From the sequence record PQ615101: a DNA stretch of 64,000 nt, one strand, 5' to 3'. This document shows positions 5,215 through 56,341 of the stretch, piece after piece. A model generated the notes under the pieces. That model saw only the letters and a list, made by a program, of their open reading frames with translations, made no database searches and was not told the DNA's origin. Numbering within the stretch: position 1 is the stretch's first letter; every line of letters begins with the position of its first letter. Source of the DNA: Shigella phage SP21535. The position numbers were made by a program, and so were the translations under genes.

Positions 5215-5911
<697 letters not shown>

Positions 5912-5923
5912 TTTCACAAAGTT

Positions 5924-5954
5924 GTTTACACGTTGATGAGGTAGTGATACTATT
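5924..5954 (+). promoter_or_regulatory. early promoter (GTTTAC -35, TGaTACTAT extended -10) inside inverted repeat
   Basis: GTTTAC then 15 nt then TGATACTAT; flanked by TTGATGAG / CTCATCAA inverted repeat. Confidence 0.6.
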
Positions 5955-5983
5955 ATCTCATCAAAATTAATTAGGAAAATAAA

Positions 5984-6271
5984 ATGAAAACTTTCAAAGA
6001 ATTTACTTCTACAACTACCCCGGTTTCTACTATTACCGAAGCTACTCTTACTTCTGAGGTTATTAAAGCAAATAAAGGACGAGAAGGTAAACCAATGATT
6101 AGTCTGGCTGATGGTGAAGAAATCAAAGGTACTGTTTACCTAGGTGATGGGTGGTCTGCTAAAAAGGATGGTGCTACAATCGTTATCTCTCCTGCTGAAG
6201 AAACTGCGTTGTTTAAAGCTAAACACATTTCTGCGGCACATCTCAAAATTATTGCTAAAAATCTTTTGTAA
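5984..6271 (+). CDS. ipI: internal protein at the ipI locus
   Basis: 95 aa (T4 IPI is 95 aa); N-terminus MKTFKEF.. resembles capsid targeting sequence; body differs from T4 IPI. Confidence 0.6.
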   Translation: MKTFKEFTSTTTPVSTITEATLTSEVIKANKGREGKPMISLADGEEIKGTVYLGDGWSAKKDGATIVISPAEETALFKAKHISAAHLKIIAKNLL

Positions 6272-7875: not shown

Positions 7876-7916
7876 TATTTTGGGAACATAAATACTCTTA
7901 GAAATAGGAGATATTT

Positions 7917-8582
7917 ATGTTCCATTACACTTATAAAATAACAAATAAAATTAATAATAAAATTTATATTGGTGTGCATTCTACCGAAAATTTAGATGAT
8001 GGATATATGGGTTCTGGTAAATTATTAAAAAGAGCCCAAGACAAGTATGGTATAGAAAATTTCTCTAAAGAAATATTAGAGTATTTTGATGATAAAGAAT
8101 CTATGCTTGAAGCCGAGAAAAATATTGTCACAGAAGAGTTTTTAAATAGACCAGATGTGTATAATTTAAAACTTGGCGGTGAAGGTGGATGGGACCATAT
8201 AAATATTCCTGGGATGCTAAACCAGAAGAAAGATGCTAGCTTAAAAGGAGCTAAATCGTTTAAATCACGTTTTGAAAATGATATTTTACTTCAAGAAAAA
8301 TATCGTAAAATTGGTTCAAATGTATTTAAACGTTTGTGGTCAACTCCTGAATACAAGGAAAAATTTTTAAATAATAGCAGATTTTTAAATAAGCATCATA
8401 CTCCTGAAACTATTAATAAAATGAAAGAAATTCACGCTAAAAATAATCACCAGAAAGGAGAAAAGAATTCCCAATTTGGTATGATGTGGATTCATTCATT
8501 AGATGAAAAAGTTTCTAAACGTATTAAGAAAACTGACCCAATTCCAGAAGGATGGTTTAAAGGTCGAAAAATGAAATTTTAA
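7917..8582 (+). CDS. segB: GIY-YIG homing endonuclease SegB
   Basis: 221 aa inside the tRNA cluster as in T4; YKITNKINNKIYIGVHSTENLDDGYMGSG GIY-YIG motif. Confidence 0.85.
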   Translation: MFHYTYKITNKINNKIYIGVHSTENLDDGYMGSGKLLKRAQDKYGIENFSKEILEYFDDKESMLEAEKNIVTEEFLNRPDVYNLKLGGEGGWDHINIPGMLNQKKDASLKGAKSFKSRFENDILLQEKYRKIGSNVFKRLWSTPEYKEKFLNNSRFLNKHHTPETINKMKEIHAKNNHQKGEKNSQFGMMWIHSLDEKVSKRIKKTDPIPEGWFKGRKMKF

Positions 8583-32673: not shown

Positions 32674-33706
32674 TAATTTAATTCAGGCTCATGTAAAACC
32701 GGTCTAAACGGGGAACCTCTCTAGTAGACAATCCCGTGCTAAATGTTCTTTTGAACTAAATGCCTAACGACTAACCGTGATGAATGTAGCGGTGTAGAAT
32801 AGAAGCTAATGCTATTCGAAACGGCCGGCATCGAAAGATGAAGATATAGTCTAATCTGCATGGCGACATGCAGCAGTCATCTTGTATAAATAAGATTATC
32901 TTATGAATACGAGGTGAAACAATGAAATGGATAAAAAGACGTTGTACTAAAATAAAAGATAAAGACGCATTTACATACTTAGTTAAGTTTTCTAATGGCG
33001 ACATTTATATCGGTTATAAAAAATTTAGAACAATTAAAAACAAGCCCACAAACTGGAAAACTTACACAACGTCATCTAAGTATATAAATGAACGCTTAAA
33101 AACTGATACACCTACTAAATGGATAATTTTAAAAACATTTGATAGTTATAAAGATGCATTAAAACATGAAGAAGAGGTCATACGTAAATATTTTTATAGC
33201 AAAAAATGTTTAAATAAATCCATAGGCGGTAAAAAGTTTTATAAGCATCCGGATACTGAAGAACATATTCAAAAATTAAGAGATGCTCATAAGGGTAAAG
33301 TGTTATCCGAATCTCATAAAAACAATATAAAATCTTCTGTAGCTGAATATTATGCTAAAAACGGAAGATCTAAGGAACATGTGCAAAATAATATCAATAG
33401 TCGAAAAAGTAAAAAACAAGTATCGATAAAGCTTAAAAATAAAACTTTTAGAAGTTTTAAAAAAGCAGCGGAATATTTAAATTGCACTGAAAGTGAAGTC
33501 GAAACTCATCCTCTTGTTTTGAGTATTAAGACTACTATTCATAAAGTTCCTGAATATGTGGTTGTTGACGGTATTAAGTATACGTCTTATATAGAAGCAG
33601 CTAAAGCGCTAAATTTTCATCCTAGCACTATAAAAGAACGTTGCATATCTATGGACTATCCAAATTTTGTTGTTTCATATAAACGGGCATGAATTTGCGA
33701 CTCATG
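32674..33706 (+). mobile_element. group I intron in nrdD (T4 nrdD/sunY-type) carrying I-TevII
   Basis: Starts UAAUU like the T4 td intron; core CUAAACGGGGAACCUCUCUAGUAGACAAUCCCGUGCUAAAU; inferred length 1033 nt equals the T4 nrdD intron. Confidence 0.75.
32922..33692 (+). CDS. I-TevII: intron-encoded GIY-YIG homing endonuclease I-TevII
   Basis: 256 aa ORF inside the intron; FTYLVKFSNGDIYIGYKK motif. Confidence 0.8.
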   Translation: MKWIKRRCTKIKDKDAFTYLVKFSNGDIYIGYKKFRTIKNKPTNWKTYTTSSKYINERLKTDTPTKWIILKTFDSYKDALKHEEEVIRKYFYSKKCLNKSIGGKKFYKHPDTEEHIQKLRDAHKGKVLSESHKNNIKSSVAEYYAKNGRSKEHVQNNINSRKSKKQVSIKLKNKTFRSFKKAAEYLNCTESEVETHPLVLSIKTTIHKVPEYVVVDGIKYTSYIEAAKALNFHPSTIKERCISMDYPNFVVSYKRA

Positions 33707-34998
33707 CTGAATATAATGATGAAGTAAATACACTTTTCAGCTCTAATGGACAAACGCCTTTTGTAACAATTACATTTGGTACGGGAACTGACTGGACTGA
33801 ACGAATGATTCAGAAAGCAATTCTGAAAAATCGTATTAAAGGTCTTGGTCGTGATGGGATAACTCCTATTTTCCCTAAGCTTGTTATGTTCGTTGAAGAA
33901 GGTGTTAATCTTTATAAAGACGATCCGAACTATGATATTAAGCAGCTTGCTCTAGAGTGCGCAAGCAAAAGAATGTATCCTGATATTATTTCAGCTAAGA
34001 ACAATAAAGCTATCACTGGTTCATCTGTTCCTGTTTCTCCGATGGGATGCCGTAGTTTCTTGAGCGTATGGAAAGATTCGACTGGCAATGAAATTCTTGA
34101 TGGACGTAATAATCTTGGTGTTGTAACATTGAATCTTCCTCGCATCGCGTTAGATTCTTATATTGGAACACAGTTCAATGAACAGAAATTTGTTGAATTG
34201 TTCAATGAGCGAATGGATTTATGTTTTGAAGCTTTGATGTGTAGAATTAGTTCCTTAAAAGGAGTTAAAGCGACTGTTGCTCCTATTCTTTACCAAGAAG
34301 GTGCATTCGGGGTTCGTCTTAAACCTGATGACGATATAATTGAGTTATTTAAAAACGGCAGAAGTTCAGTGTCTTTGGGATACATTGGTATTCACGAATT
34401 AAATATTCTTGTCGGTCGTGATATTGGACAAGAAATTTTAACTAAAATGAATGCTCATCTTAAACAGTGGACTGAAAGAACCGGATTTGCTTTTAGTTTA
34501 TATTCGACTCCTGCTGAAAACCTTTGTTACCGCTTCTGTAAACTTGATACAGAAAAATATGGAAGTGTAAAAGATGTTACCGATAAAGGCTGGTACACTA
34601 ATAGTTTCCATGTTTCAGTAGAAGAAAATATTACTCCGTTTGAAAAGATTTCTCGTGAAGCGCCATATCATTTCATTGCGACAGGTGGTCACATTTCTTA
34701 TGTTGAACTTCCTGATATGAAAAATAACTTAAAAGGCCTTGAGGCCGTGTGGGATTATGCTGCACAACATTTAGATTATTTTGGTGTTAATATGCCAGTA
34801 GATAAATGTTTTACATGCGGAAGCACCCATGAAATGACTCCTACTGAAAACGGATTTGTTTGTTCTATTTGTGGAGAAACTGATCCTAAAAAGATGAATA
34901 CAATAAGAAGAACATGCGGATATCTTGGAACTCCTAGCGTTGTTCCATGGAATTTAGGTAAAATGAAAGAAATGGTAAAACGAGTAAAACATGCATAG
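33707..34998 (+). CDS. nrdD: anaerobic ribonucleotide reductase NrdD, exon 2
   Basis: 3-prime splice after G33706, exon 2 begins CUGAA (P10 pairing); C-terminal glycyl radical motif RRTCGYLG; combined product about 609 aa. Confidence 0.75.
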
Positions 34999-35821
34999 GT
35001 ATTATATAATTTATAAAATAACAAATATAATTAATTCAAAGGAATATATCGGTGCGCATAGCACCGATAACATAAATGACGGTTATATGGGGTCAGGAAC
35101 ATTGATTCGTGCCGCTTTATTAAAATATGGTAGAAAAAATTTTAATAAAGAAATTTTACATGTTTTTGATAATGAAAAACAAATGTATGATAAAGAAGCT
35201 GAACTTGTAACCGAAGAGTATTGTCTAAAAGAAAATACATATAATATTAAACCTGGTGGAAAAGGTGGAACTGCCTATGAACAGACACTTGAACATCGCC
35301 GCAAAAATAGTTTAGCAAATAAAGGTAAAAAGAGAACAGAAGAAACTAAAATAGCTATTTCACGTGCTTTAAAGAAATATAAACGTACGCCAGAGCATCA
35401 AGCAAATTTAAATAAAGCCGTAAGCATAGCTATGAAGCGAAAAGATGTTAGAAGTAAATTAGCTGGAGAGCGGTCTGAGAAAGATAAATTATCTATATCA
35501 AACGGTGTTAAAAAATATTACAATTCTTTGAGTGAAGAAGAACGCGAACTTCATCGCAAGCGAATTATTGAAGGTAAAAAGAATTCTCCCATGTCATTGG
35601 AATCTAGACAAAAGCTTTCAAAAGCTTTAAAAGGACTTCAAGTTGGTTCAAAAAATCCAATGTATGGAAAAATTTCTCCAACTAGCAAAACCGTTTCAGT
35701 TGACGGTATTAAATATGATTCAATTAAAAAGTGCTCAAATGCCATAAAAGTTTCTAGACATCTTATACTAAAACGCTGTAATTCTACTGATGAAGCTTGG
35801 AAAAATTGGATATTATTATGA
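34991..35821 (+). CDS. free-standing GIY-YIG homing endonuclease, SegB paralogue
   Basis: 276 aa; N-terminus YKITNIINSKEYIGAHSTDNINDGYMGSG closely parallels segB; NUMOD-like repeats; sits between nrdD and nrdG. Confidence 0.75.
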   Translation: MHRYYIIYKITNIINSKEYIGAHSTDNINDGYMGSGTLIRAALLKYGRKNFNKEILHVFDNEKQMYDKEAELVTEEYCLKENTYNIKPGGKGGTAYEQTLEHRRKNSLANKGKKRTEETKIAISRALKKYKRTPEHQANLNKAVSIAMKRKDVRSKLAGERSEKDKLSISNGVKKYYNSLSEEERELHRKRIIEGKKNSPMSLESRQKLSKALKGLQVGSKNPMYGKISPTSKTVSVDGIKYDSIKKCSNAIKVSRHLILKRCNSTDEAWKNWILL

Positions 35822-52232: not shown

Positions 52233-52973
52233 ATGATTAATAACTCTATGACAGTTGAAGAAATCCGTCTTTATTTGGGAATTGCATTAAAGGAAAAAGA
52301 TTTCGTAATTGATAAAACCGGTGTTAAAACTATTGAAATTATTGGTGCATCATTTGTAGCAGATGAACCTTTTATTTTTGGCGCTCTTAATGATGAATAC
52401 ATTCAGCGTGAACTTGAATGGTATAAGTCTCAAAGTTTGTTTGTTAAAGATATTCCAGGTGAAACGCCAAAGATTTGGCAACAGGTAGCATCTTCTAAAG
52501 GCGAAATTAACTCGAATTATGGTTGGGCCATCTGGTCAGAAGATAACTATGCTCAGTATGACATGTGTTTAGCTGAACTTGGTCAAAATCCTGATTCTCG
52601 ACGTGGTATCATGATTTATACTCGTCCATCTATGCAGTTTGACTACAATAAAGATGGTATGTCAGATTTCATGTGTACGAATACAGTACAGTACCTGATT
52701 CGTGATAAGAAAGTCAATGCAGTGGTTAACATGAGAAGTAATGATTGCTGGGCAGGCTATCGTAATGATTATGCATGGCAAAAATATGTACTAGATAAAT
52801 TAGTATCTGATTTGAATGCAGGTGATTCAACTCGTCAGTATAAAGCAGGTTCCATTATATGGAATGTCGGGAGCCTTCATGTGTATTCCCGTCATTTTTA
52901 TTTGGTTGACCATTGGTGGAAAACTGGCGAAACTCATATTGCGAAAAAAGATTATAACGGTGAGTGGAAATGA
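52233..52973 (+). CDS. 42: dCMP hydroxymethylase gp42
   Basis: 246 aa as T4 gp42; thymidylate-synthase-like fold. Confidence 0.85.
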   Translation: MINNSMTVEEIRLYLGIALKEKDFVIDKTGVKTIEIIGASFVADEPFIFGALNDEYIQRELEWYKSQSLFVKDIPGETPKIWQQVASSKGEINSNYGWAIWSEDNYAQYDMCLAELGQNPDSRRGIMIYTRPSMQFDYNKDGMSDFMCTNTVQYLIRDKKVNAVVNMRSNDCWAGYRNDYAWQKYVLDKLVSDLNAGDSTRQYKAGSIIWNVGSLHVYSRHFYLVDHWWKTGETHIAKKDYNGEWK

Positions 52974-53812
52974 TTCAATTCGTAATTCCAAGCTATCAAC
53001 GCGTAGGGGCAGTTTCTGCCCTTGATATGTTTCCGACTGATTATGAACCTCATATTGTAGTACGTGAACATGAAGAAAAAGCTTATTATGACGCTTACGG
53101 GTCTAGAGCTAAAATTATAACTATTCCTGATGATGTTAATGGAATTGCTGGTACTCGTAAAGCAATTACTGATATGTATGCAGGTCAACGAATTTGGATG
53201 ATTGATGATGATACTACTATTCGTATGAGTTCAATACGAAAGAGAGACGATAAACGGCGTGTAGATAAAGTCAATCAATTGACTCGTGAGCAATTCTATG
53301 AATTAATTCAATACGTTGAGGATGCAATGGATTGCGGGTATTATCATGGTCATGCTCGTTTACCAATTTTTAAAATTACTTCATCTTGGGGTAATTATCG
53401 TGAAAATTCATATGGATTCACGAATACATGGTATGATTTAGGAAAACTTACAACAGAACAAATTGGGTATGGAAAAATTGATTTATGTGAAGATATGTAT
53501 GCATTTCTCAATTTAATTAATCAAGGTTATCCGCATTTGGCCTTGTTCAAATATCTAGTTGTATCTGGAAAAGCACAAGCTCCTGGCGGATGTAGTTCAA
53601 TTCGTAGTAATTCAAAACATAATAGAGCTCTTGAGCAAATCAATAGAGAGTTTCCAGAGCAAGCTCGTTGGAAAACATCGAATATTGAAAAACGAAAATC
53701 GTTGGGTGAAGAAGATGAACCGCTAAAGGTTCTTCGCATGTGTGTTTCGCGTAAAGAAAAATCAGAAGCATTTCATAAGTTTAATGCTATTCATCCAATA
53801 GCAGTTGATTAA
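52970..53812 (+). CDS. glycosyltransferase (DxD type), not T4 beta-gt
   Basis: Track ORF 52964..53812; ATG 52970 overlaps gene 42 stop; IWMIDDD motif; unlike the 351-aa T4 beta-gt that occupies this locus. Confidence 0.6.
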   Translation: MIQFVIPSYQRVGAVSALDMFPTDYEPHIVVREHEEKAYYDAYGSRAKIITIPDDVNGIAGTRKAITDMYAGQRIWMIDDDTTIRMSSIRKRDDKRRVDKVNQLTREQFYELIQYVEDAMDCGYYHGHARLPIFKITSSWGNYRENSYGFTNTWYDLGKLTTEQIGYGKIDLCEDMYAFLNLINQGYPHLALFKYLVVSGKAQAPGGCSSIRSNSKHNRALEQINREFPEQARWKTSNIEKRKSLGEEDEPLKVLRMCVSRKEKSEAFHKFNAIHPIAVD

Positions 53813-53889
53813 TGCCTAAATTTATTGTGTTATAATTACCCTATCTTTAACCAGTGAGGAAAATATAATGATGCTTATGGAAAAAATGA

Positions 53890-54819
53890 ATGTCTATTGC
53901 AGATTTAAAATCCCGTTTGATTAAAGCTTCCACTTCTAAAATGACTGCTGAACTGACTACATCTAAATTCTTTAATGAAAAGGATGTAATCCGTACAAAA
54001 ATCCCAATGCTTAATATCGCTATTTCTGGCGCGATTGATGGCGGCATGCAGTCTGGTTTAACTATTTTCGCAGGGCCTTCTAAACACTTTAAATCAAATA
54101 TGTCTTTGACTATGGTTGCGGCATATTTAAACAAATATCATGACGCAGTTTGTCTATTCTATGATAGCGAATTTGGTATTACTCCAGCTTATTTGCGATC
54201 CATGGGAGTTGACCCGGAACGAGTAATTCATACGCCAATTCAGTCAGTTGAACAGCTGAAAATTGATATGGTGAACCAGCTTGAAGCTATTGAGCGTGGT
54301 GAAAAGGTTATTGTATTCATCGACTCAATCGGTAATATGGCTTCTAAGAAAGAAACGGAAGATGCCTTGAATGAAAAATCTGTGGCAGATATGACTCGTG
54401 CTAAATCACTGAAGTCATTATTCCGTATTGTTACTCCTTATTTTAGCATTAAAAATATTCCATGTGTTGCGGTTAACCATACAATTGAAACAATTGAACT
54501 GTTTAGTAAAACCGTGATGACAGGTGGTTGTGTTATTGCTGGTACTAAAATCCAGATGTCCGATGGTTCTACTAAAGCAGTTGAAGATATTCGTCCAGGT
54601 GAGCGTGTTAAAACCATGGTCGGTGATAATGAAGTAACTTATGTTTGGGACCCCGAAACTCTGGCTGAAGGTACTCCTGAATGTTTCGAAATTGAATTCG
54701 AAGACGGTTATAAAGTAACTACTTCAGATACTCACAAGTTCCTGGTAATGGTTAAAGACATTCCAACTTGGGTTGAAGCTAAAGATTTAGTAGCTGGAAT
54801 GGATTGTGTTGTAAGGTAA
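53890..54819 (+). CDS. uvsX: UvsX recombinase N-terminal fragment (residues 1-213) fused in frame to a putative intein N-half
   Basis: First 213 aa match T4 UvsX up to ..FSKTVMTGG (Walker A GPSKHFKS); then 96 aa starting with Cys; ends TAA TAA. Confidence 0.85.
   Translation: MSIADLKSRLIKASTSKMTAELTTSKFFNEKDVIRTKIPMLNIAISGAIDGGMQSGLTIFAGPSKHFKSNMSLTMVAAYLNKYHDAVCLFYDSEFGITPAYLRSMGVDPERVIHTPIQSVEQLKIDMVNQLEAIERGEKVIVFIDSIGNMASKKETEDALNEKSVADMTRAKSLKSLFRIVTPYFSIKNIPCVAVNHTIETIELFSKTVMTGGCVIAGTKIQMSDGSTKAVEDIRPGERVKTMVGDNEVTYVWDPETLAEGTPECFEIEFEDGYKVTTSDTHKFLVMVKDIPTWVEAKDLVAGMDCVVR
54529..54816 (+). other. putative split-intein N-terminal half (Int-N, 96 aa)
   Basis: Begins CVIAGTKIQMSDGS (block A Cys1), contains TTSDTHKF (block B TxxH); absent from T4 uvsX. 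Confidence 0.65.
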
Positions 54820-54822
54820 TAA

Positions 54823-54864
54823 ATATGGGTACCGGACTAATGTATATTTTTGAGGTACCCATAT
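54823..54864 (+). promoter_or_regulatory. hairpin sequestering the endonuclease RBS and start codon
   Basis: Perfect 11-bp inverted repeat ATATGGGTACC (54823-54833) / GGTACCCATAT (54854-54864), 20-nt loop; 3-prime arm covers GAGG SD and A,T of ATG 54863. Confidence 0.6.
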
Positions 54865-55585
54865 GAATTTTGTCTATAAAATTGTGTTCAACGATAGAAT
54901 TAAAAACGGCACTCCGCCATATTACTACATAGGGAGCAAGACAAATGCTTCTTATGTAGATGGTAAGATTATTGACGCCCACGGTCGTGAGTACTATGGC
55001 TCATCGAGATATCCCGGATATCATGATTTTATCAATAATGTTACTGTTGAAATATTGGAGCAATATGATGATATTAAACACACTAAACTGCTAGAGCGCG
55101 AAAATTTCTATCAGAAACAAGTAAATGTTAAAACAAATCCAGATTATTTTAATTTAGATTATGCTTGTGGGCATAATTCATATGCTAATGCTGATTTTGC
55201 ATCATACAAGCATTATATAACAGGTAAATGTATTCGTCTTGAAAGAAACCATCCGCTTGTTAAATCTGGTGTGTATGTTGGCGTCACAAAAGGCGTGAAA
55301 TCTTCTGATGAACACCGCAAGCACATATCAGAAGGTATTACCGGAGAAAACAATGGGTTCTATGGTAAGAAACACACTAAAGAAACAATTAATAAAATAT
55401 CAGAAAAAGCAAAGAAAAGATTAAAGCATTCCCATCCTAGACAAAAAGGTGTTATCATAAACGGTATTGAATACCGGGGCGTCAGACCTGCTGCAAGAGC
55501 GTTGGGAATTAATCCTAACACAATTATCAACAAAATTAAAGCTAATATAAAAGGATGGGCTTATGCAGTAGATGCACGCGGTTAA
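54863..55585 (+). CDS. free-standing GIY-YIG homing endonuclease between the two uvsX fragments
   Basis: 240 aa; VYKIVF..YYIGSK GIY-YIG-type N-terminus, NUMOD-like linker repeats, C-terminal helix-turn-helix-like region. Confidence 0.75.
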   Translation: MNFVYKIVFNDRIKNGTPPYYYIGSKTNASYVDGKIIDAHGREYYGSSRYPGYHDFINNVTVEILEQYDDIKHTKLLERENFYQKQVNVKTNPDYFNLDYACGHNSYANADFASYKHYITGKCIRLERNHPLVKSGVYVGVTKGVKSSDEHRKHISEGITGENNGFYGKKHTKETINKISEKAKKRLKHSHPRQKGVIINGIEYRGVRPAARALGINPNTIINKIKANIKGWAYAVDARG

Positions 55586-55693
55586 GGCATTCGAAGATAT
55601 GGTAAAAGAATTTGGAATGAACATGACAATCAAGATTATGCTTTCATGAAATATGTATATTGAAACTAGCTACTACGAAACACAAGGTAAAGT

Positions 55694-55798
55694 ATGAAAA
55701 TTAAATCTGTTAAATCTGTTGGTAAAAAAGAAGTCTATGATTTGTCTGTTGCTGACGTCGAGCATTATGTTTTAGAAAATGGTATCGTTACACACAAC
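55694..55798 (+). other. putative split-intein C-terminal half (Int-C, 35 aa)
   Basis: Ends His-Asn followed by Thr +1 extein residue; block F/G-like VYDLSVADVEHYVLENGIVTHN. Confidence 0.65.
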
Positions 55799-56341
55799 AC
55801 AGGCGTAATGTATTCGGCTGATACTGTATTCATTATCGGTAAGCGCCAGATTAAAGATGGTTCTGATCTTCAGGGGTATCAATTTGTTCTAAATGTAGAA
55901 AAATCTCGTACCGTTAAAGAAAAAAGTAAATTCTTTATTGATGTTAAATTTGACGGTGGCATCGATCCTTATTCTGGATTGTTAGATATGGCTCTTGAAT
56001 TAGGATTTGTGGTAAAACCTAAAAATGGCTGGTATGCTCGTGAATTTCTTGACGAAGAAACAGGCGAGATGATTCGCGAAGAAAAATCTTGGCGTGCAAA
56101 AGATACCAACTGCACTACATTCTGGGGTCCTTTATTTAAGCATCAGCCATTCCGAGATGCTATTAAACGTGCTTATCAGTTAGGTGCTATTGATAGTAAT
56201 GAAATTGTTGAAGCTGAAGTTGATGAATTAATTAACTCAAAGGTTGAAAAATTTAAATCTCCAGAAAGTAAAAGTAAATCAGCAGCTGATTTAGAAACTG
56301 ACCTAGATCAGTTAAGTGATATGGAAGAATTTAATGAATAA
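55694..56341 (+). CDS. uvsX: putative intein C-half (35 aa) fused in frame to UvsX C-terminal fragment (180 aa)
   Basis: Own AAGG SD and ATG; ..VYDLSVADVEHYVLENGIVTHN then TGVMYSADTVFIIGKRQ.. matching T4 UvsX C-terminal region. Confidence 0.85.
   Translation: MKIKSVKSVGKKEVYDLSVADVEHYVLENGIVTHNTGVMYSADTVFIIGKRQIKDGSDLQGYQFVLNVEKSRTVKEKSKFFIDVKFDGGIDPYSGLLDMALELGFVVKPKNGWYAREFLDEETGEMIREEKSWRAKDTNCTTFWGPLFKHQPFRDAIKRAYQLGAIDSNEIVEAEVDELINSKVEKFKSPESKSKSAADLETDLDQLSDMEEFNE

Follow-up and report, generated by a model that had tools for sequence, protein, structure and literature searches.

The recombinase gene uvsX of Shigella phage SP21535 is encoded in two separate open reading frames (ORFs), and our analysis of a 64,000-nucleotide stretch of DNA (sequence record PQ615101, in the following the window) makes it very likely that this is a fractured gene. 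A cassette of 1,270 bp interrupts the coding sequence, composed of the two parts of a naturally split class-1 intein and, between them, the gene of a Seg-type homing endonuclease. Most probably, protein trans-splicing rejoins the recombinase, and the spread of the cassette is most probably due to its own endonuclease.

Anatomy of the interrupted uvsX

All parts of the locus are located on the plus strand. The first ORF (53890-54819, 309 amino acids, aa) begins with uvsX codons 1-213 (53890..54528), the N-extein, which ends in ..FSKTVMTGG, aligns without gaps to residues 1-211 of T4 UvsX and matches Pfam RecA as well as the families phrog_97 and phrog_8337. The frame continues into 96 aa (54529..54819), the putative N-terminal intein half (IntN), starting as CVIAGTKIQM with the catalytic-position Cys1 and holding in the stretch ..TTSDTHKF.. 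the block B residues S66-D-T-H69. Its stop codon TAA (54817-54819) is directly followed by a second TAA, thus a tandem stop is present at 54817-54822. The second ORF (55694-56341, 215 aa) starts with 35 aa, the putative C-terminal intein half (IntC, MKIKSVKSVGKKEVYDLSVADVEHYVLENGIVTHN, 55694..55798), with the Asp of block F and the His-Asn of block G in the terminal ..IVTHN. The C-extein of 180 aa and a stop codon follow (55799..56341), beginning with Thr as +1 nucleophile (TGVMYSADTV..); it matches T4_UVSX_C at 1.9e-39 and is nearly identical to residues 212-391 of T4 UvsX. The original prediction had described the same two ORFs with the same partition into UvsX and inserted residues, and all of its coordinates and residues were confirmed.

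Joined to each other, the exteins (213 + 180 = 393 aa) align end to end with T4 UvsX (391 aa) with 353 identities, the comparison of lengths having been part of the prediction, and the alignment has no gap at the junction (..TVMGGG/TGPMYS.. in T4; a slash marks the junction here and below). They are 99.5 % identical to the intact UvsX of other Tequatroviruses, and the T4 UvsX structure PDB 3IO5 was aligned across the junction at 4e-77. The insertion point lies between Gly213 and Thr214, corresponding to Gly211/Thr212 in T4; the alignment to 3IO5 likewise placed the junction at G211/T212. The cassette (54529..55798) is missing from the empty-site uvsX alleles of the relatives teqhal and AdolfPortmann, in which GGT/ACA is uninterrupted at this position and the flanks are otherwise identical. 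Its edges are the codons TGT (Cys1) on the left and AAC (terminal Asn) on the right, and the boundaries are identical in all six Tequatrovirus carriers. The break had been predicted to fall in the RecA-type DNA-binding loop region. It adjoins loop L2, yet is not inside: in the alignment to Mycobacterium smegmatis RecA (..GVMFGSPETTTGG/KALKFYAS, G214/K215), the junction is situated right after the following Gly-Gly, which we take to be the conserved pair directly behind L2.

Between the halves lies the free-standing endonuclease gene (54863..55585, 240 aa, 27.4 kDa) with a SegG-like GIY-YIG domain (residues 1-103), a NUMOD3 motif (146-180) and a C-terminal helix-turn-helix. A variable spacer (55586..55693), which contains the Shine-Dalgarno (SD) sequence of the C-fragment (AAGG, 55684-55687), separates this gene from IntC. 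Compared to the window, the spacer has a 34-bp insertion in HY03, pSe_SNUABM_01 and ELT1 and a 77-bp deletion in RPN226. In Lion_ER11, UFV01 and SEA1, the endonuclease stop codon overlaps the start of IntC.

Intein halves, endonuclease and hairpin

Profile searches substantiated the proposal that the inserted segments are intein halves. IntC alone passed TIGR01443 (29.9 bits, cut-off 15.6), and the fused halves passed Pfam PF14890 Intein_splicing (43.1 bits, gathering cut-off 35.8). Among PDB sequences, phmmer with the fused halves found the inteins of Npu DnaE (1e-5) and gp41-1 (3e-4), and also that of Pyrococcus horikoshii RadA. A profile of 12 paired alleles matched gp41-1 at 9.6e-10 over nearly the full length and Npu DnaE at 4e-9, furthermore 3IFJ (M. 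tuberculosis RecA intein, 2.4e-4) and 4E2U (P. horikoshii RadA intein, 1e-3); essentially all of its 35 matches were inteins or HINT domains. PDB matches to Tako8 were discarded as a repeat-driven artefact, consisting of seven weak stretches, none of them significant singly. For structural comparison, P0001, a natural contiguous homologue with 54 % identity to the fused halves of the window, was modelled by AlphaFold2. All top Foldseek matches of this model were inteins, gp41-1 being the first, with template modelling scores of 0.68-0.72 (target-normalised).

The residues of the splicing reaction are conserved. In 18 alleles and a contiguous relative, down to an identity of about 55 %, Cys1, the block-B Ser/Thr-x-x-His, the block-F Asp, the terminal His-Asn and the +1 Thr/Ser are invariant; in the numbering of the fused intein the invariant positions are C1, G5, T6, S66, H69, D112, H130 and N131. 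The +1 residue is Thr, replaced by Ser in L015, P0069 and P0131. In all alleles IntN has a length of 92-97 aa and IntC of 35 aa, and the split falls between blocks B and F, where endonucleases are canonically inserted, each half having its own stop or start. IntN is acidic (net charge -9), and the N-terminal strand of IntC is basic (+4). These sequence characteristics support an assignment of the inserted segments to a canonical-type naturally split class-1 intein, and the conservation suggests that trans-splicing is needed.

The ORF between the halves had been predicted as a GIY-YIG endonuclease, which agrees with 46 % identity of its first 103 residues to T4 SegG (over 105 aa, E 1e-27). The GIY-YIG motif reads VYK...YYIGSK (residues 4-26), and NUMOD3 was detected at 3.3e-10; residues 146-234 comprise NUMOD3 together with an alignment to the I-TevI DNA-binding domain 1I3J (2e-4), hence an I-TevI-like DNA-binding tail. 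SegG, the closest characterised relative, is listed as an active GIY-YIG homing endonuclease of T4 (PMC2988022, Table 1). An identification of the middle ORF as Seg-type GIY-YIG homing endonuclease is supported by these similarities. The endonuclease ORF is shortened in TG1 and vB_VmeM-32, to 201 and 133 aa, respectively. The Proteus phage Pm5461 has a second annotated homing endonuclease of 459 aa directly after the uvsX C-piece and before gene 40 (L021:5192-6571), thus endonuclease genes are located both within and beside its uvsX.

At the 5' end of the endonuclease gene, an RNA hairpin (54823..54864) has a perfect stem of 11 bp (54823-54833 with 54854-54864) and a loop of 20 nucleotides. 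It masks the end of the endonuclease SD (GAGG, 54852-54855) and the AU of the start codon. Compensatory stem changes are present in other carriers, GGAUACC/GGUAUCC in RPN226, Lion_ER11 and UFV01 and AGAUACC/GGUAUCU in Pm5461 (the slash separating the two arms). The fold z-score of the 86-nucleotide region around the hairpin was not significant (-1.37); the case for the hairpin is based on the perfect stem and the compensatory changes. Overlapping the start of the 5' arm, the late-promoter-like motif AATAAATA (54818..54825) may serve as late promoter; an exact TATAAATA, the T4 late-promoter consensus, lies shortly upstream of the endonuclease genes in PspYZU05 and in the metagenomic locus L015. 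A scan for sigma-70 promoters and terminators, the coverage of which does not extend to T4 middle and late promoters, returned fewer promoter-like sites than shuffled sequences and hence gave no usable information. The layout corresponds to that known for the endonucleases of fractured genes, with ribosome binding sites hidden in read-through transcripts and exposed in late transcripts (PMC2677866, Figure 4); hairpins over the ribosome binding site are described for T4 endonuclease genes, too (PMC2677866).

Distribution and evolution of the cassette

Megablast retrieved the complete split arrangement in eight deposited records with 94-99 % DNA identity, representing the six phages BYEP01, SYGD1, HY03, pSe_SNUABM_01, ELT1 and RPN226, and an uninterrupted uvsX in about 750 further records. 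In Tequatrovirus the cassette is rare (6 in ~750 records). The independently sequenced carriers come from China, Korea, Thailand and other places, and the cassette occurs in three sequence variants whose differences are mostly confined to the endonuclease gene and the indel-prone spacer before IntC. A tblastn search with IntN yielded 27 phage records: 24 had the match in uvsX, corresponding to about 18 distinct cultured phages, the remaining three matches were weak (34-36 % identity) and fell into terminase or hypothetical genes. The carriers are affiliated to Tequatrovirus, Karamvirus, Gelderlandvirus, Bragavirus, Jiangsuvirus, Tegunavirus, Emmerichvirinae and unclassified Straboviridae, and were obtained on nine host genera (Escherichia, Salmonella, Klebsiella, Enterobacter, Proteus, Shewanella, Pseudomonas, Yersinia and Vibrio). 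Many metagenomic alleles were found as well. Carrier sequences of HY03, Pm5461 and TG1 are already in GenBank under KP/KR-series accessions. An intein is annotated in none of the ~18 cultured carriers; the vB_VmeM-32 record bears the note 'conserved domain HintC'. The names of the halves are inconsistent, e.g., 'protein RecA', 'DNA repair protein', 'recombinase' or 'hypothetical protein', and the C-half of SYGD1 is named 'portal protein'. The PHROGs families phrog_8337 and phrog_18112 match one half each, intein part included. The 'split' uvsX records of Pu-Krd-SF4 and CPRSA are unrelated; their fragments result from a frameshift and are adjacent, with no insert. A local hidden Markov model scan of the window detected no further intein-like segment.

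The ratio of non-synonymous to synonymous substitution rates (dN/dS), determined pairwise between the window and other carriers, was 0.02-0.19 for IntN and 0.02-0.18 for IntC, in comparison to 0.02-0.25 for the exteins (N-extein 0.02-0.18). The intein halves are constrained as strongly as the recombinase exteins. Such a constraint is expected if splicing is needed; a remnant in decay or a tag serving only for dimerisation would not be expected to show it. Between genera, synonymous divergence of the intein is lower than that of the exteins: against Lion_ER11, dS was 0.82 for IntN and 1.96 for the N-extein, against SEA1 0.74 for the intein and 1.68 for the extein. Within Tequatrovirus, the cassette is near-identical across differing uvsX backgrounds and occurs sporadically. 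Both observations indicate horizontal spread. A sharp co-conversion boundary was not found near the insertion, and a homing tract is therefore not claimed. The endonuclease gene is also under purifying selection (dN/dS 0.07-0.19), but diverges much more than the flanking intein halves, with a dS of 0.56 against RPN226 compared to 0.20 and 0.05 for the halves. The endonuclease partner varies, too: the SegG-like enzyme is present in most cultured carriers and an unrelated GIY-YIG enzyme in Thanatos-1, and the metagenomic loci L012 and L015 have HNH enzymes. The divergence and the exchange of partners indicate that intein and endonuclease have partly separate histories.

The wider intein family is large. 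An exhaustive phmmer search with IntN obtained 423 cluster representatives at E<=1e-3, 49 of them at E<=1e-10. Six full-length UvsX homologues of 477-514 aa (P0045, P0050, P0056, P0069, P0131, P0160) carry a contiguous mini-intein at exactly the site of the window (..GGG/C..HN/TG..), thus cis- and trans-splicing forms of one intein family appear to coexist. In a neighbour-joining tree of IntN, based on short sequences and without support values, all cultured carriers grouped in one all-split clade, and metagenomic split and contiguous forms were interleaved. Additional UvsX inteins are positioned in the P-loop (GPS[KR]HFK/C..HN/T in P0057 and P0034) and a few residues upstream of the window site in the L2 region, at two positions (..ADMG/C..HN/SMFPK and ..F/SKTVVSGG; P0041, P0038, P0048). 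From these sequences, uvsX looks like a multi-site intein hotspot.

A uvsX divided into three pieces is present in one group of metagenomic loci, which come from three independent samples (L012:4346-7747 on contig SRR30164251_478334; also L013 and L014). The order in L012 is the N-piece with a first IntN (..VVNHTYQ/CGTEDMM..), an HNH endonuclease, a 142-aa ORF, a second endonuclease with HNH and NUMOD3 domains, and the second IntC with the C-piece. The 142-aa ORF consists of the IntC of the first intein, an extein of 13 aa (TQEMYSKTVVSGG) and the IntN of the second, so two different split inteins are placed 13 residues apart. The first, fused, scored 40.9 with Pfam Intein_splicing (cut-off 35.8). 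This uvsX would need two different split inteins, the second being probably orthogonal to the first. A natural protein built from three polypeptides via two trans-splicing reactions is not known to us.

Two further loci were noted among the relatives. In L015, where the halves of the split uvsX are separated by two HNH-type ORFs as large as 554 and 500 aa, an ORF of 161 aa (P0001; L015:6001-6486) comes directly behind the uvsX C-piece (5502-6053) and overlaps its end. It is almost wholly a contiguous mini-intein with 'exteins' of 27 and 4 aa. Since a Met is kept at its IntN/IntC junction (..TIDG-MLKVTS..), the sequence suggests that P0001 arose through fusion of split halves. In the Salmonella phage SEA1 (L027:1811-4540), uvsW is fractured as well, in the order ..GLMMNDE/CFDGDT.. 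(IntN), a NUMOD3-bearing ORF of 291 aa, and MRLKSIKE..GALAHN/CHLATGKS.. (IntC and the C-part of UvsW). The intein site is within helicase motif II (DE/CH), and the same match was obtained in S16, STP4-a, CF-SP2 and related Gelderlandviruses. SEA1 thus has two fractured recombination genes in one phage.

Upstream of uvsX in the window, a tentative T4-type middle promoter was read from the sequence (53813..53836, plus strand), with a MotA-box-like TGCCTAA (53813-53819), a spacer of 11 nucleotides and TATAAT (53831-53836). The preceding gene between gene 42 and uvsX (52964-53812, plus strand) codes for 282 aa of the beta-glucosyl-HMC-alpha-glucosyltransferase type (HMC, hydroxymethylcytosine), as in T2/T6-like phages, replacing the b-gt gene of T4. 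HY03, SYGD1, ELT1 and RPN226 have an additional small ORF between gene 42 and the glucosyltransferase gene. Three further free-standing Seg-type GIY-YIG ORFs are present elsewhere in the window (7908-8579, 32907-33689 and 34988-35818, all on the plus strand), recognized by Pfam GIY-YIG or SegE_GIY-YIG and combined with NUMOD1, NUMOD3 or an I-TevI DNA-binding domain.

Alternative explanations and significance

In the favoured explanation, a single transcript would span both uvsX halves and the endonuclease gene. Separate translation would yield an N-precursor of 34.2 kDa (UvsX 1-213 with IntN) and a C-precursor of 24.5 kDa (IntC with UvsX 214-393). The acidic IntN and the basic strand of IntC may pair into the HINT fold, and splicing is predicted to proceed by the acyl shift at Cys1, the attack of Thr+1, the cyclisation of Asn131 and an O-N shift. 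The ligation ..TVMTGG-TGVMYS.. would give a UvsX of 44.1 kDa, with TVMTGGTGVMYSADTVFIIGK as tryptic junction peptide (about 2148.5 Da), and would set free IntN (10.7 kDa) and IntC (3.9 kDa). The hairpin over SD and AUG would restrain the translation of the endonuclease, and a late-promoter transcript starting within the 5' arm, at about 54831-54834, would probably release it. In a mixed infection, the endonuclease would cut intein-less uvsX alleles, and the repair would copy the entire cassette into them.

Several observations weigh against this explanation. IntN scored 22.4 bits with TIGR01445, slightly under the cut-off of 24.5. The AlphaFold2 model is of moderate quality, with a mean predicted local distance difference test value (pLDDT) of 62, about 74-84 in the core and below 50 for blocks F and G, and represents the homologue P0001, not the window sequence. 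Pfam GIY-YIG (PF01541) gave no match to the window endonuclease at E<=1; in a control, T4 SegG was not matched either and SegA was, thus the miss is attributed to the divergence of the SegG subfamily from the profile. AATAAATA agrees with TATAAATA in 7 of 8 positions and is inexact. With Thr at +1, a nucleophile weaker than Cys or Ser, splicing could be slow. Finally, uvsX is non-essential in T4 and mutants are viable; the viability of the carriers alone is hence no proof of splicing.

The most serious rival, although an improbable one, is a two-chain recombinase: the halves would associate non-covalently via the intein fragments and function without splicing, as NrdA of phage Aeh1 does around mobE. 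Unligated split genes work in T4-like phages, PMC2677866 and PMC10448857 citing the Aeh1 nrdA/mobE case; the tight binding of split-intein halves could make them a dimerisation module, and the charge complementarity of IntN and IntC fits an association equally well as splicing. Yet an association needs neither Cys1 nor the block-B His, the block-F Asp, the His-Asn or the +1 Thr/Ser, all of which are invariant at ~55 % identity. A retained HINT domain of 131 aa at the Gly-Gly by loop L2 would probably block the filament groove, and the full-length UvsX proteins that carry a contiguous mini-intein at this site could turn into normal recombinases solely through splicing. It is considerably less probable still that uvsX is a dead gene, broken by insertion of a homing endonuclease and flanked by decaying intein-like remnants. 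The viability of T4 uvsX mutants would permit such a loss, and the truncated endonuclease ORFs of TG1 and vB_VmeM-32 demonstrate that cassette parts can decay. This reading is contradicted by the strong purifying selection on exteins and intein halves, and the ORFs of uvsX pieces and intein are intact in ~18 phages of nine host genera, each half retaining its own start and SD.

A self-splicing group I or group II RNA intron with its endonuclease, the resemblance to an intein being coincidental, is highly improbable. T4 group I introns bear GIY-YIG endonucleases (I-TevI, I-TevII), and the best NCBIfam match of the endonuclease ORF was TIGR01453, 'group I intron endonuclease' (53.9 bits, cut-off 56.05). 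No Rfam family matched 54300-56000 at E<=1, however, and the RNA intron was rejected on this account; the cassette edges agree, down to the codon, with Cys1 and Asn131 of a protein recognized by intein profiles, and both flanks are read in the frame of the exteins, under protein-level purifying selection. The probability of an assembly artefact or of a frameshifted or misassembled uvsX, named as an alternative already in the original prediction, is close to nil. Sequencing frameshifts do break uvsX in some deposits, but the fragments in Pu-Krd-SF4 and CPRSA lie next to each other, while the 1,270-bp cassette recurs in independently deposited genomes and many metagenomes, which refutes an artefact.

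Fractured genes with this arrangement are known from metagenomic phage sequences, as the prediction had stated. The cases gp41-1, gp41-8, NrdJ-1, IMPDH-1 and NrdA-2 of Dassa 2009 (PMC2677866) have the same ORF order as the uvsX cassette on one strand in one operon, a free-standing endonuclease between the halves, GIY-YIG or other in type and GIY-YIG here, a DNA-metabolism gene of a T4-like phage as host, a hairpin at the 5' end of the endonuclease gene and late-promoter-like motifs, to which the 7/8 match in the window would correspond. The best profile and structural match, gp41-1, is yet only ~23 % identical to the uvsX intein. The uvsX gene is absent from the eight host types of that study, which names gp41, IMPDH, DnaE, NrdA, NrdJ, ligase and terminase; UvsX is there merely a neighbouring ORF (PMC2677866). 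The uvsX intein differs by the +1 Thr and by its occurrence in cultured phages, including phages of E. coli K-12, instead of metagenomic reads alone. Among cultured myoviruses, the split intein of Aes123 PolB1 from T4-like Aeromonas phages (PMC11923092) also resides in a replication gene, but the host is DNA polymerase B and the intein is cysteine-less. In jumbo phage MIJ3, a putative split intein of PolB (PMC6892783) has an endonuclease ORF between the halves as well; it differs by the PolB host and an HNH enzyme. Replication genes with split inteins were thus already on record for cultured T4-like and jumbo phages.

The inteins of Npu and Ssp DnaE share with the uvsX intein the canonical split (~100-aa IntN, ~35-aa IntC), Cys1, the class-1 blocks and charge-complementary halves; in contrast, their halves are encoded at distant loci of a cyanobacterial host, no endonuclease lies between them, and they have Cys at +1. 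The inteins of M. tuberculosis RecA (PI-MtuI) and P. horikoshii RadA have hosts of the RecA family, but are contiguous, cis-splicing and inserted at other sites. The M. leprae RecA intein presumably lies a few residues upstream, inside L2. Relative to the window site, the intein in RecA of M. tuberculosis lies further C-terminal and the P. horikoshii RadA intein in the ATPase domain (PMC4513877). The nrdA of Aeh1 is split by a free-standing endonuclease gene like the uvsX cassette, but NrdA is without intein. In T4, segA is beside an intact uvsX, not within it, as had been noted before; SegA, whose target is uvsX (PMC2988022, Table 1), belongs to a separate Seg lineage, since Pfam GIY-YIG matches SegA and neither SegG nor the window enzyme. 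The window has no segA between the glucosyltransferase gene (52964-53812) and uvsX, the place of segA in T4. In agreement with the prediction, no description of an uvsX intein was found in the searchable literature; subscription journals and InBase were outside the coverage, so this result is provisional. Genome papers checked for related or carrier phages did not mention a split uvsX. The arrangement is known in kind, and uvsX as fractured host is, provisionally, unreported.

A further-reaching proposal appears rather unlikely to us: uvsX would be an undescribed intein hotspot in which trans-splicing exceeds the neutral repair of a parasitic insertion, the supply of recombinase being gated post-translationally. 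If true, association and splicing of the halves would gate the recombinase and hence cassette mobility and recombination-dependent replication, possibly conditionally. Homing of the T4 type depends on the UvsX recombinase (PMC2988022), and conditional splicing was shown for the RadA intein (PMC4513877).

For the annotation of phage genomes, the finding calls for a correction in ~18 cultured phages and two PHROG families which name the halves as separate genes. As uncharacterised split-intein family with Cys1 and Thr+1, an IntC of 35 aa and a Gly-Gly/Thr-Gly junction, it is a possible tool for protein engineering and offers dozens of natural variants of cis and trans type. Fractured genes were first defined from marine and freshwater metagenomic reads; they are now at hand in phages of the T4 genus that grow easily on E. 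coli K-12. With teqhal and AdolfPortmann as near-isogenic empty-site relatives, trans-splicing, endonuclease specificity, co-conversion and fitness cost become measurable by T4 genetics. The cassette interrupts the very recombinase that catalyses homing, which makes it a case for studying the dependence of a selfish element on its host gene.

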